NCBI GenBank assembly: GCA_951406725.2
Contig: OX597836.1
Span: forward strand, 36,642,001-36,706,000
DNA: 64,000 nucleotides
Source: Octopus vulgaris
Lineage: Eukaryota
Reading direction: 5' to 3'
The notes under the pieces were generated by a model that was not told the DNA's origin, did not search any database, and saw only the letters and a program-made list of their open reading frames with translations. Both the position numbers and the translations under genes were made by a program. Positions 3,496 through 62,370 of the stretch are shown here, in pieces; position 1 is the stretch's first letter; each line of letters opens with the position of its first letter.

Positions 3496-3571
<76 letters not shown>

Positions 3572-3728
3572 GACGGGCTTCTTTCAGTTTCCGTCTACCA
3601 AATCCACTCACAAGGCATTGGTCGGCCCGAGGCCAAAGTAGAAGACACTTGCCCAACGTGCCCAGTGGGACTGAACCCGGAACCATTTGGTTGGTAAACA
3701 AGCTACTTACCACACAGCCACTCCTGCG
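3256..3728 (-). mobile_element. SINE family A (tRNA-like head, internal (TA)n/(TG)n, agtaaaag tail)
   Basis: Same sequence recurs about 12 times in the window. Head has box A/B-like tggtaagtagc...ggttccgggttcagtccc. Confidence 0.9.
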
Positions 3729-3904
3729 TATATATGCAAACAATATTCCTTTGAGTCAAGATATCCTGTGGAAGGCTTTCTTTTAACTCATTCCCTGTCC
3801 TGTGCATCACAAGTGATACGCAGAATATATTTCCCCGTTGTTCATGTATCATATGTGATACACATTCCTAATTTTCTTCAAACAACAGAATAATTGTGAC
3901 GTAT

Positions 3905-4130
3905 ATTTGCCATTGAAATATGGCTAACCCCTAAGGGTGGATGCTACTGTAGTTTGTAGTCCCAGGAGACCACCGCCTCCAGCTGGCTATAGACACACTT
4001 TCTGTGCCCTATCAGTATTTGCAAAGGGAAGTCATCCTTCCCGCCTTCAACTTATGATACACACGGACTCGAGTTTCTGGGTATTGACCCGTCATCGGCG
4101 TGTGACAGTCACAGTTGCCGATGAGCTGAG
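3905..4130 (-). mobile_element. Structured HHR-containing element, homologous to 17855-18180
   Basis: Shares the HHR stem II motif (tgacggg.caa.acccagaaac), cccttYgcaaata and the downstream hairpin series with the 17.9-kb unit. Confidence 0.7.
4060..4104 (-). ncRNA. Type-I hammerhead ribozyme motif, CCGAUGA core variant
   Basis: Minus strand: CACACG-CCGATGA-c-GGGT-caat-ACCC-a-GAAA-C-tcga-GTC-CGTGTG. Stem I 6 bp, stem II 4 bp, palindromic stem III ACTCGAGT, GUC site. Confidence 0.8.
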
Positions 4131-5390
4131 ATTTATTATTAACAGAATAATTGCTAAGAAGTAAACAATAATAATTTGTATTTCTTCGATTCGAAGCGAG
4201 GTTTTATGTGCGGGGGATATCAAATGTGCAAATAGACAGAATTATCTTAACAATGAGACAAAGCGTTATCTTGATTAAATATATCACTTAAAACCAAAGA
4301 AGCATTTGTTCCTTTCCTATCTTGAAATGCAACAGGAAATTATTTCCATTCAAATAGTATATATTTTTTTCCACTATACTCCACAACTTCTTTTCTGCTG
4401 GGCCAGATTTAATGCGCTTTCTTGTATTAGGAAAATTTAAGTATTCTAACTTCCTTTCGAAATTAACTGACGTATAATGACTAAAAGACGATAAAAGGCA
4501 GCAATCCCTTCATATCGAGTCAATTTTCTGCCTATTGTTTCTTTACTGCATCGATTTTTAAAAGGTTTACAGCATTCACCGCCACATATGGTGCGTTTTC
4601 AGAGAATTGTCTTCGTATAGTTTATTAGGTTCTTCAATTTAAATACAATTAAGACAAACATAATAAAAGAATATGAAAAGTACACAAGTTGGAATACAAC
4701 CTCTAAGGGATGCATCCAATAATGTGGACATATATTTTATAATAGCTTTCACTAAACACTAATATTTGGATCTAGAAAGCAAAGGTACTTTACAATGAAA
4801 TTTATCACGTATTCAATTGGGTAGAGATCTTATAACTGGTTGCGGTAAAGTAAATCTTGACCGAATGATTATTATTGACGTAGGGCAGTGAGTGTATGGG
4901 ACATATAAGCATACATGCAAACGTGAAAACATACATTCATACATGCATACATATATATATATATATATATTAGAAGAAATAAGGTACCCAGAAATTAGGA
5001 TGGATTTATATTTACAGACATTTATTTGGATATTACATGTTTTTACACATCATATAACGTATATCATATATATCATCTCCAAACCTTCTAATATATATAA
5101 TGCCATGATGTCGAAATTTATAGTATATGTTCTCTACGAGATATTTTATTGAGTGAAGAATTCTTCAAACAATGTAATGTTCAGCTCTATGGAATGCAGA
5201 ATTCTATAAAGAGTGCAACAATAAATTTTACTACTCCTCACAAGAATGCATTTACTAAGTCTCGAATAATTCTATGTACACATAAACACACACACACGAG
5301 AGCAAACACACATATATATATACACACACACATATATATATAGAAATGCATATGTATATGTGTGTATGGGTATGCATGCATGTATGTATA

Positions 5391-7334: not shown

Positions 7335-7644
7335 TATAATATAATCAAAAGGGTAATAATATAGATTACTACCAGTGGCCCAGCACAAAGGACGAATTAG
7401 TCATTAGACAAATATTTTTCATATAGAAAAATATTATTCATATAGAAATATAATTAAGGGCTCCTAAATAAGGATGCCAAGTGCTAGGGACACAAAAAAG
7501 GGATAAATTTATCGAGAGTGAAAATCAAAAACATTTACCAATAACAATACACACACATATATATATATAAGAATTTTTTCCGTAATGAGATAAAAAAAAC
7601 AAGGCTATGTAGATATTAGAACATTCATAGATAGACGGACCTTC

Positions 7645-17005: not shown

Positions 17006-17854
17006 ACACTTTAGTACGACTGAAATTATATAAGTACATTTTGAGTAGGCTTTGTGTAAGATTGAATTTTGTTGTTGATTAGACGTTATTATGCATATCC
17101 ATTGAATACAACATCAATGTTGAAGTAAGGCTTAAGGATTCTTTGAATGGTAGTGAAGTGACAAATAGGCAACATTTTCATGACATTTGAGAGATGATTA
17201 AGTGTTGTTTCAATTATCTTTCACTAGTACTAATGGAAAGATACTTCGAAAGCATATCTAGTTATTCTGTGATTGCCTTTTCGGTGGCCTACACGTAGTA
17301 CTTAAATGATGTGTCAGTGGTTTTTAAGTAGAATAAGTACATTTCTCCCGTCTCCAGACGACAAGACGAGCAATCACTAATCGTTAGATTGCCATGATCA
17401 ATATAAACGTTGGACGCTTACAGAATCGTTAATACGCCGGACAAAATGTTTAACAGCATTTTTGTTCCGGTCGTTTACGTTATTTTTCTAAGAATGAACA
17501 GTTAGAGGAAATGCCTCAAATGGAATAGAGAAAGCAGTAATTTTCATTTGCAAACTGCGCCCAACTGATTTTTGGCTTGTCTTTTTTGTCGGAACAATTG
17601 GGAATGTATGTATGCTTGACCAAATCTGCCATACGGTTAAATAACAGAAGTTAAAGAATGGGACTCTACCTGGTGGTTTTGTCTGCTGAAATTATGCTAA
17701 ATTTTCTTTCAGTCACAGCGTTATGTTTTGAACAAAGAACGTGTTGGATAATGCAGGCCTCTCTACACATTATATATGTTTGTCTAATATATATATATAT
17801 ATATTAGTCCTGCTATTTGATAAATTCAATTTAGAAATTCAATATTTCTAATAT

Positions 17855-18180
17855 CGGTGACCAGTGAATAGATTTCACTGAAAATATATATATTTGCGAA
17901 GCCTTGGCAGGCATCTCAACTAGCAGGACTTACTATCCTGGACTGATGACGGGCAAGACCCAGAAACATGCATGTCTCTAGATGCAGGCCTAGCTGGTGG
18001 GGGTGCTTGCCTCCCCTTCGCAAATATAAGGACACAGGAAATGTGTCAAAGCCGACAGGAAGCCTCGATGCTCCCTAGGGCTAAATAGCGGTGATGTAAC
18101 TCCCTTTACGGGACTGTCACGTTGTGTTGACAGTATACAACCGCTCTATCGCTCCACCACTGCTCATGTCTCTCTGAGAC
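17855..18180 (+). mobile_element. Retrozyme-like structured unit flanked by a 26-bp direct repeat
   Basis: atttagaaattcaatatttctaatat at 17829-17854 and 18181-18206. The interior holds an HHR and a run of hairpins. Confidence 0.7.
17938..17981 (+). ncRNA. Type-I hammerhead ribozyme motif, intact core
   Basis: CTGGA-CTGATGA-c-GGG-caaga-CCC-a-GAAA-C-atgcat-GTC-TCTAG. Palindromic stem III ACATGCATGT; predicted cleavage after C17976. Confidence 0.88.
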
Positions 18181-18203
18181 ATTTAGAAATTCAATATTTC
18201 TAA

Positions 18204-18601
18204 TATAAGGAAAGAGATATAGATAAAGTCTTACAGCTGTTTCTGAGATATTACAGATATCCCTTCATCAGAGACGATGTGAGATTGTTAAATAGAGGTA
18301 AATATTTGAGTTCGAAATAAGGAATTATTATGGCAAGAGGGAAGATCAGGAATATAGAGGGAAATGAGAGACCGAAAGTAGAAATAAAATATACAATATT
18401 GTAGTTGAAGTTCCATTATTCTCCTTTTTCGTTCATATTTCTGGTTTCATCTTCTTATTTCCCTCCATATTCCCTTTCTCTTCCTTTTCTATAATAATTC
18501 CTTATTTCGAACTCAAATATTTACCTGTATTTAACCTTCTCACATCGTCTCTGATATCCCAGAAACGGCTGCAAGACTATATCTATATCTCTTATCTTAT
18601 A
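18204..18601. mobile_element. Inverted pair of HHR-bearing terminal repeats (Penelope-like)
   Basis: Arms at about 18204-18365 and 18455-18601 are reverse complements, e.g. aggtaaatatttgagttcgaaataaggaattattat / ataataattccttatttcgaactcaaatatttacct. Confidence 0.8.
18228..18275 (-). ncRNA. Type-I minimal hammerhead ribozyme motif, intact core
   Basis: Minus strand: GTCT-CTGATGA-a-GGGATAT-ctgta-ATATCTC-a-GAAA-C-agct-GTA-AGAC. Palindromic stem III ACAGCTGT, GUA site. Confidence 0.88.
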
Positions 18602-52994: not shown

Positions 52995-53575
52995 ATCTTT
53001 TCTACTCTATGCACAAGGCCCGAAATTTGGGGTGGGGCCAGTTGATTAGATCGACCCCAGTATGCAACTGGTACTTAATTTATCGACCCTCGAAAGAATG
53101 AAAGGCAAAGTCGACCTGGGCGGAATTTGAACTCAGAACGTAACGGCAGACGAAATACCTATTTCTTTACTACCCACAAGGGGCTAAACACACAGAGGAC
53201 AAACAAGGACAGACAAAAGGATTAAGTCGATTACATCGACCCCGGTGCGTTAATGGTACTTATTTAATCGACCCTGAAAAGATGAAAGGCAAAGTCGTCC
53301 TCGGCGGAATTTGAACTCAGAACGTAACGGCAGACGAAATACCTATTTCTTTACTACCCACAAGGGGCTAAACACACAGAGGACAAACAAGAACAGAAAA
53401 AGGATTAAGTCGATTATATTGAGCCCAGTGCGTAACTGGTACTTATTTAATCGACCCTGAAAGGATGAAAGGCAAAGTCGACTTCGGGTGAATTTGAACT
53501 CAGAACGTAGCGGCAGACGAAATATCGCTAAGTATTTCGCCCAACGCGCTACCGTTTCTACCAGCTCGCCGCCTT
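52995..53575 (-). mobile_element. SINE family B with three tandem ~184-bp units
   Basis: aaaggcaaagtcg at 53101, 53285 and 53468; single head near 53575. Confidence 0.92.
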
Positions 53576-61507: not shown

Positions 61508-61903
61508 GTGTGTGTGTGTGTGTTATATTATATTATATTATATTATATATATGTATGGATAGATAGATATGAAATGTGGCATCCCACTTTAGCACGTTTA
61601 CCCGATAGCTTATTCAACTCACTGGCGGCCAGACCGAGTTCGCAACCGCTTGCAGCGAACTACTATACCCTCATATATGTATATATATATGTGTGTGTGT
61701 GTGTATGTGTGTTTGTGTGTGTATGTATGTATGTGTATGCATGTATATGTGTGTGTGGTTGAGGGGTATTTCGTTAAGAAGTACAAAATAGAGTTCGTTC
61801 AAAATTAGAATATAACATAATATAATATAGTATATTAGAATATAACATAAATAATATGAATAATTCAATCTCAGAATTTGATTGAAAAAGTAATCGCTCG
61901 ATA

Positions 61904-61989
61904 ATGTAAAGTATAGAAGCCATCTTATCATGGCTAACCCCCCTCCCCAATGTGGTTAGCCATGATAAGATGGCTTCTATACTTTACAT
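61904..61989. repeat. Perfect 36-bp inverted repeat with 14-nt loop
   Basis: 61904-61939 is the exact reverse complement of 61954-61989. Confidence 0.95.
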
Positions 61990-62168
61990 AAGTAATATAT
62001 TTTCTAGTAATATATTGAATTACACTCAATAAGCAGCAGCTGCTAGTTGGATTATTCCGCAAATTTCAAACAGTTTCAATGCATCTTAGGAAGATTATCT
62101 TACAGATTCTCGGGAGCAAATATTGGTACGTCTTAAGCGTGAGGAGACCAAAAGGATATATATATATA

Positions 62169-62216: not shown

Positions 62217-62370
62217 CTGGATCTTTCCTTCTCCTATGTTTCCGACGAAGAGCTCCGTTCGAAATGTAAAGCCTCCTTCTTCCCTTCTTTCCTGAGCGTC
62301 CAATAATACTATATTTGTTCCACGTCCTCGCGTTGTTGTGTTGTTTTGTGTTTTCTTGTTTGGATTAACT
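62210..62370 (+). mobile_element. Repeat family F with degenerate hammerhead (62238-62272)
   Basis: gttt-CCGACGA-a-gagc-tcc-gttc-GAAA-t-GTA-aagc; flanked by (TA)n. Confidence 0.7.

Follow-up and report, generated by a model that had tools for sequence, protein, structure and literature searches.

A truncated, non-coding octopus repeat with a hammerhead motif belongs to one of five lineages that share a predicted RNA head and probably insert through it by a Penelope-like route

Introduction

The closest described systems are the metazoan non-LTR retrozymes (PMC7229834), non-coding units of 150-450 bp (350-390 bp in mussel) arranged in tandem, each with one type I hammerhead and a GC content under 50%, without LTR features, and with longer target duplications and a self-paired monomer. 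Their expression, cleavage and circular RNAs have been demonstrated, and Penelope-like elements have been proposed as their movers (PMC7229834). The sequences are species-specific, and the parts of that account consulted here describe no conserved non-ribozyme domain, fixed end points or twin arms. A second study (bioRxiv 10.64898/2026.07.22.740005), with no mollusc in its sample as described in the portion consulted, also finds retrozymes co-occurring with Penelope-like elements, as monomers, dimers and multimers, and proposes that they are non-autonomous derivatives of these elements. In Xenopus this link is drawn from distribution and from homology to the terminal repeats, and one of nine Xenopus dimers was cleaved. 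Both the copying enzyme of animal retrozymes and its recognition target are proposed, not demonstrated, in the literature consulted.

A tail and an inverted truncated copy are hallmarks of Penelope-like elements (PMC8557442), and a Penelope-like protein, that of PAc from Anolis, uses two internal start sites in vitro that bound the tail, cutting and extending both strands of AT-rich targets (PMC11167929). PAc is autonomous, carries a hammerhead upstream of its start sites, and has a tail of 30-40 nt in the start of its ORF.

The octopus units described here, known from sequence alone, resemble metazoan retrozymes in every one of the structural features listed above. The kind of element is therefore already known, as is the proposed Penelope link (PMC7229834; bioRxiv 10.64898/2026.07.22.740005, as far as consulted). 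What the present analysis adds is a covarying, non-catalytic head that five lineages have in common and on which both start points can be placed. The literature searched yielded neither a domain of this sort nor a retrozyme from cephalopods, and the main text of the octopus repeat annotation PMC13282606, as far as consulted, contains neither 'ribozyme' nor 'hammerhead'.

Results

Related units in the window

The window (the whole 64-kb stretch of DNA that was analysed) comes from a genome of 2.8 Gb that is AT-rich and rich in microsatellites. It contains a copy at 3.9 kb comprising 233 of the 352 bp of the subfamily A1 monomer, truncated at its 5' end, and a lineage B copy at 17.9 kb made up of one full monomer plus about 24 bp (Table 1). 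The original prediction had recognized a shared module order in these units, and all of the modules are indeed found at their places in both minus-strand 4125-3893 and the plus-strand 17.9-kb unit. Local alignment of the two units scores 123.5, compared with 52.7 ± 6.8 (maximum 82) for 1000 dinucleotide shuffles, and the likeness extends far past the hammerhead core: the region downstream of the hammerhead scores 83 by itself, against 33.6 ± 5.5, with none of 1000 shuffles as high. The relatedness that had been proposed thus stands, but these are not two lone members of one family; they are copies of two high-copy lineages that are about 56% identical. A third insertion of the superfamily consists of two short back-to-back arms without a ribozyme, with one end near each of the fixed points described below (judged by eye), and is the same variant as at locus L244.

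Table 1. Positions in the window of the insertions and their parts
Feature	Position	Strand	Remark
Main arm	3893..4125	-	5'-truncated subfamily A1 copy; 223/233 identical to A1 consensus
Type I hammerhead motif	4060..4104	-	read from sequence
Hammerhead stem I	4104-4099 with 4065-4060	-	6 bp, from sequence
Hammerhead core	4098-4092	-	carries U4C
Hammerhead stem II		-	3 bp, closed by C-A mismatch
Hammerhead stem III	4074-4067	-	palindromic
Long rod extending stem I, 5' strand	4016..4031	-	from consensus monomer folds
Head hairpin H1	3992..4008	-	stem sequence-conserved, loop variable
Head hairpin H2	3958..3988	-	outer and inner helix around internal loop
Helix H3, 5' strand	3950-3943, within 3909..3950	-
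H3 multiloop hairpins	H3a 3938-3927, H3b 3924-3909	-
Inverted arm, 15 nt	4126..4140	+	read against A1 consensus
Target-site duplication copy 1, 13 bp	4141..4153		exact direct repeat with 3884-3896
Target-site duplication copy 2, 13 bp	3884..3896		exact direct repeat
Lineage B copy	17829..18204	+	357/377 columns identical to B1 consensus
Lineage B copy, hammerhead	17937-17982	+
Lineage B copy, rod	17891-17901 with 18016-18026	+
Lineage B copy, H1, H2	18031-18047, 18050-18082	+
Lineage B copy, H3	18088-18095 with 18156-18163	+
Lineage B copy, H4, H6	18169-18179, 17862-17880	+
Third superfamily insertion	61861..61990		HMM match E 2.7e-4; 36-nt perfect inverted repeat

A dispersed superfamily of five lineages

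A first look at the genome gave 2334 candidates for the 3.9-kb unit and 2877 for the 17.9-kb unit, each unit belonging to a dispersed family, and the 40 scored for each were 88-96% identical. Lineages A and B have monomers of 352-353 bp in head-to-tail arrays, the one at locus L061 holding 8.9 copies of 352 bp, and adjacent inverted partial copies were found beside dispersed copies. This nine-unit array was considered as proof of copying from one circle and set aside, its variants being interleaved. Pattern searches and further loci resolved 11 subfamilies in lineages A, B and E (monomers 351-356 bp). Lineage Y (362 bp, 2.2% from consensus) came to light in a locus retrieved on other grounds, through a sequence HMM of A, B and E built without it, and has the same head when folded; lineage G has a monomer of 353 bp. 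The five reconstructed lineages, with monomers of 351-362 bp, are 56-65% identical counting gaps, and constitute a dispersed superfamily of non-coding hammerhead retroelements of the non-LTR retrozyme type, short non-coding units present both in head-to-tail tandem and as dispersed copies. The exact ribozyme pattern for lineages A and B occurs at 658 sites and a degenerate head pattern at 7374, with none in either control, these being pattern matches and not curated copy numbers.

No tRNA (by ARAGORN) and no relevant small-RNA family of Rfam was found in samples of the five lineages, and an origin as a tRNA- or 5S-derived SINE was rejected accordingly. Neither the unit nor the 64-kb window contains an ORF with reverse transcriptase and GIY-YIG domains, so these are not autonomous Penelope-like elements. 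Among the rows listed, an Rfam scan of the whole window returned microsatellite-driven miRNA noise. The A1 unit is covered by contigs of four sequencing runs with three organism labels (the RNA labels are guessed), contigs that do not give ends, strand or level. None of the listed runs is on record as RNA. Private changes show no strand-asymmetric A-to-G excess of the kind left by editing (A>G/T>C 13/22, 17/21, 8/8 and 27/20).

A sixth lineage is probably represented at L281 642-808 (-), L227 and L252, about 70% identical to B1 in the head; L281 adjoins an apparent coding exon.

The hammerhead motif

As read from the sequence, a type I core with stems I-III is present in all of the lineage consensuses. 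Rfam does not recognize a hammerhead in either window unit at E<=10, and the five lineage samples are likewise without a match. The cores depart from the usual form, with U4C in A1 and a 10.1-11.1 mismatch; U4C, which the original prediction omitted from the core of the 3.9-kb copy, is present in 18 of 100 listed rows of the exact ribozyme pattern, and is reported to lower activity considerably in vitro (PMC3088659, in the part consulted). In single-strand minimum-energy folds of A1 the full active core is not formed, and cleavage of the window copy is predicted between 4066 and 4065. The suggestion that stem I had been replaced between the two units while still pairing needs qualification, since some of the pairing quoted for the 17.9-kb unit involves mutations private to that copy.

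In eight consensuses confirmed by script, with six different sequences among them, and in G also by eye, stem III forms a perfect palindrome. A simple hairpin would not need a palindrome, and this fits the double-hammerhead mode described for Penelope-like elements, whose hammerheads likewise have a short palindromic helix III suited to it (PMC4209133, as far as consulted). The U3-A8 core covariant of those hammerheads also occurs in lineage Y. They differ from the present ones, in which helix I (6 bp) continues as a long rod and helix II is short; most lineages here also have a mismatch in place of the conserved G10.1-C11.1 pair.

Other hammerheads were seen in the course of these searches. 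An A-lineage variant at L276 1140-1700, next to a truncated Penelope-like fragment with a TA tract between them, has a canonical 4-bp stem II with G10.1-C11.1. A canonical hammerhead pattern occurs at 1065 sites genome-wide (90 in the control), many in recurring families unrelated to the head, and 30 loci of other hammerhead families contained no head (best E 0.16).

A conserved head beyond the ribozyme

Cut at the predicted cleavage site, every lineage consensus is predicted to fold with stem I extended into a long rod that is closed by a branched head, made up of hairpins H1 and H2, the long helix H3 with hairpins H3a and H3b inside it, and H4 and H6. The consensus monomers fold far below their shuffles (z -6.6, -10.4 and -8.3; 60 shuffles each), and are thus highly self-paired with GC contents of 43% and 46%. 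The pyrimidine-rich module after the ribozyme, originally taken for a free downstream domain, is in this fold one strand of the rod; the strand with which it pairs is found upstream of the ribozyme in full monomers, a part that the 3.9-kb copy lacks. In that copy H2 is partly decayed, and the 3' strand of H3, which is situated past end point 1, is absent. Two further hairpins, a third one of the H3 multiloop and one preceding H6, were rejected as parts of the head, as they are not conserved across lineages.

The original prediction held that compensatory change points to selection on RNA structure, and for the downstream helices this is borne out. RNAalifold recovers the whole architecture from a sequence-only alignment of the five lineage consensuses, and from 25 real copies picked to span the lineages, also aligned by sequence only, it predicts 28 pairs, 15 of them with change on both sides. 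Among 36 named pairs, 18 are changed on both sides (12.9 expected), as are 77 individual cells against 28.3 ± 3.9, and 89.8% of cells are paired compared with 83.7 ± 0.5 for shuffles and 30-46% for slid controls, the shuffle and slid controls ignoring relatedness; further pair types show no excess (36, against 39.1 in shuffles). The changes are unevenly spread: 7 of the 8 pairs of H3 are changed on both sides and 5 of 9 in H2 (2/4 and 3/5), but only 1 of 6 in H1 and none of 4 in H4. For H1 and H4 it is the sequence that is conserved, and covariation is slight or absent, which qualifies the earlier claim.

Two further comparisons used other sets of pairs. Helices anchored by hand, with the first column of H3a dropped, give 44 columns of which 17 are compensatory among A1, B1 and E; automatic placement finds 36 of the 44 pairs in Y and 35 in G, the shortfall being partly register shifts. 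In a stricter test, in which the minimum-energy pairs of one lineage are carried through a sequence-only alignment to another, three of six deep comparisons and neither of two shallow ones are significant, and the two-sided changes mostly keep pairing (17/23, 14/21, 12/19, 13/20, 18/21 and 15/19).

Changes within copies follow a different pattern from those between subfamilies. In the hand-anchored helices, pairing is kept by 27 of the alternative pair types that distinguish subfamilies and broken by 7, compared with 126 private changes that keep it and 248 that break it within copies (Fisher p 3e-7); the private changes occur at the same rate in paired and other sites (0.0258 and 0.0253). By these equal rates and the preponderance of broken pairs, the genomic copies decay neutrally after insertion, and selection therefore acted on the replicating templates and not on the copies.

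A Penelope-like insertion footprint

The 3' ends of arms cluster at two points, about nucleotides 167-179 and 215-237 after the cleavage site. In lineages A, B and E, 167 of 196 arm ends fall within two generous windows that cover about a fifth of the unit, and Y and G arms end at the same two places. Point 1 is in the unpaired part of the H3 multiloop and point 2 is behind H4. In all five lineages the units therefore have the two fixed 3' ends separated by a tail that are seen in Penelope-like elements. They also share with those elements 5' truncation, partial tandem copies and an inverted truncated copy alongside.

The window copy illustrates this arrangement. Its main arm ends at point 1, the final 4 bases overlapping the target duplication, and a 15-nt inverted arm, which matches the A1 monomer up to point 2, lies back to back with it; the whole is a back-to-back insertion flanked by a 13-bp duplication. 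The lineage B copy at 17.9 kb also ends at point 2. Back-to-back arms were recorded in 53 rows (one locus being counted twice), 15 of which have an end off both sites. In the 38 with both ends at sites, 29 combine site 1 with site 2 (17.9 expected; p 2.4e-4), nine have site 1 twice and none has site 2 twice (5.5 expected); a single Y insertion has its two arms at site 2. Of 26 twin-arm rows outside microsatellites, 9 are flanked by exact target duplications, with lengths of 10-16 bp that include chance overlap with the element ends. Flanks are AT-rich (84% AT in the first 12 bases), and 48 of 160 ends run into (TA)4; those of lineage G are AT-rich and mostly not TA repeats.

In 79 arms that were not selected for the ribozyme, 40 reach the cleavage site and 35 of these continue past it, which argues for a template that was either circular or an uncut multimer. 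A cleaved linear monomer was rejected as the main template, with 5' ends at the cleavage site in 5 of the 40 and no pile-up.

The footprint, with its tail, inverted copy and two start sites, is thus of the Penelope-like-element type. It resembles that of PAc in its AT-rich targets and its upstream hammerhead, and differs in that PAc is autonomous while the template here is a non-coding RNA with a tail of about 43-59 nt; PAc also shows no strand preference between its sites in vitro, whereas opposite arms here mostly use different sites (PMC11167929, in the part consulted).

Candidate enzymes in the same genome

A GIY-YIG search returned 6136 candidates, and 148 of the 150 scored are matches, many in open frames of 781 aa. 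Locus L092 (430-5672 of G000:C16) is an intact young Penelope-like element whose 781-aa ORF encodes a reverse transcriptase, a cysteine linker and a GIY-YIG domain, a Neptune-type layout as described in the part of PMC8557442 consulted. It apparently has an upstream reading frame, and there are many near-identical copies. Its terminal repeats (456 bp, 99% identical) end at two points about 40 nt apart with TA flanks, it has a U3-A8 hammerhead variant, and a long predicted helix encloses both end points.

Neither the ends of this element nor the other Penelope-like families examined show homology to the retrozyme head, and no autonomous element with a related head was found in 34 + 20 + 12 loci around GIY-YIG or Penelope-like matches. 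The family HMM and BLAST detected only separate insertions at GIY-YIG loci (L080, L258 and L261). At L135 a Penelope-like 3' region appeared to be fused to lineage E, an arrangement rejected as a one-off, being absent from the other 11 of 12 family copies examined. By eye, short motifs around point 1 appear to be common to autonomous families and retrozyme lineages.

Discussion

We think it likely that the 3.9-kb copy, a truncated non-coding 352-bp repeat with a hammerhead motif from one of five lineages that share the head, was inserted in the Penelope-like manner by way of this head. A Penelope-like reverse transcriptase-endonuclease would use the head as its landing and start site. That the domain might be a recognition signal for a reverse transcriptase acting in trans, as originally proposed, gains indirect support because both fixed 3' ends map into it in five lineages, although end points mark where copying starts and not what the enzyme binds. 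The Penelope link drawn here thus rests on the footprint and on end points lying in a covarying structure, unlike the Xenopus link, whose terminal-repeat homology has no counterpart in the octopus loci compared (bioRxiv 10.64898/2026.07.22.740005, as far as consulted).

The proposed cycle would begin with transcription of tandem copies, in which two adjacent hammerheads may pair through their palindromic stems III and excise a unit-length RNA; we infer such paired hammerheads because the palindromes are perfect yet differ in sequence from lineage to lineage. The unit RNA may be ligated into a circle, as in other animal retrozymes, and is predicted to form a long rod capped by the ribozyme and, at the opposite end, by the branched head. 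The enzyme would then cut AT-rich DNA in both strands, some 10-15 bp apart, and use each for priming: point 1, within the H3 multiloop, would serve one strand, and point 2, which follows H4, the other. For this step the end points, the pairing of arms and the target duplications are observed, and a Penelope-like enzyme is the putative agent. Copying continues past the cleavage site, as the arms show, on the circle or uncut multimer, with the arms joined back to back, and the inserted copies then decay neutrally.

More tentatively, the head might serve a Penelope-type reverse transcriptase as a viroid-like, structure-encoded replication origin. This branched domain, kept across the lineages, might hold a dimeric enzyme in place to prime each cut strand at its own fixed point of one circular RNA, a parasitism by shape alone in which all sequence likeness to the autonomous elements has been lost.

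An alternative that we consider unlikely accepts the same element and Penelope-type insertion, and supposes that what maintains the head is its use to the RNA itself (for circle stability, ligation, binding of host proteins or silencing of the ribozyme in the monomer), with the enzyme starting in the two AU-rich single-stranded stretches that happen to be accessible in the fold. The whole unit including the rod keeps its fold and length, as a compact circle might require, and extensive self-pairing is predicted for the circles of animal retrozymes (PMC7229834, in the part consulted). The unpaired stretches that hold the two end points are the least conserved (41% and 50% identity across lineages), and sequence likeness to the ends of autonomous elements is lacking in the loci compared. 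A stable circle needs no set branched shape, however, yet the order and spacing of the helices are kept in five lineages. H1-H2 is also the most conserved part of the unit, with 69% identity across lineages compared with 64% for the ribozyme core, which suggests a specific partner, and the strictness with which arms at site 1 are joined to arms at site 2 points to a set geometry.

The sequence conservation of H1, with its single pair changed on both sides, could instead reflect an internal promoter or processing signal acting at the DNA level in H1-H2, leaving only H3 as RNA structure. A non-autonomous unit must provide for its own transcription, and by eye the first part of H2 has a loose likeness to a polymerase III A box in four of the lineages. 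H2 covaries, however, lineage B lacks the resemblance, and the tRNA and Rfam searches of the five lineages gave no match, so that we regard this explanation as very unlikely.

It is highly improbable, in our estimate, that the units are detached terminal repeats of an unsampled autonomous Penelope-like family and do not replicate independently. Xenopus retrozymes are homologous to such repeats (bioRxiv 10.64898/2026.07.22.740005, as far as consulted), and the Penelope-like loci examined are a small part of the genome's total. Upstream of the ribozyme, though, every lineage runs into the previous monomer and not into an ORF, no in-phase ORF lies beside 27 heads sampled by position, and the L135 head behind a Penelope-like fragment is not shared by its family. 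A remote origin of the units from a Penelope-like terminal repeat is likely all the same. Finally, thousands of copies with a conserved structure might suggest exaptation as a structured RNA serving the host, which is scarcely credible given that private mutations in the sampled copies fall equally on paired and unpaired sites and mostly break pairs, and that the window copy is truncated with a decaying H2.

Five lineages that are 56-65% identical amount to a natural mutagenesis series defining a conserved non-catalytic RNA domain. The superfamily moreover offers two predicted start sites at nucleotide resolution together with intact candidate enzymes from the same genome, and the preferred reading, that the head is the landing and start site of a Penelope-like enzyme, is thus directly testable in the existing in vitro assay (PMC11167929, as described in the part consulted).

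Other features of the window

The 3' end of the lineage B copy adjoins a 400-bp fold-back (18204-18601) with arms that are 83-85% complementary. Its minus arm contains a further hammerhead-like motif, at 18271, whose stem II has 7 bp and whose stem III is palindromic, and on this account the fold-back is probably a twin-armed insertion of another ribozyme family and not a MITE. More hammerhead-like core motifs, with C at position 4 and stems of 4-7 bp, lie at 62242 (+) and 63520 (+), and a similar C4 motif occurs within an inverted repeat at loci L066 and L273. A very common dispersed SINE-like repeat (3550-3735) lies just past the 3.9-kb unit, and a different SINE-like repeat forms a tandem of 2.6 x 184 bp at 53040-53524.
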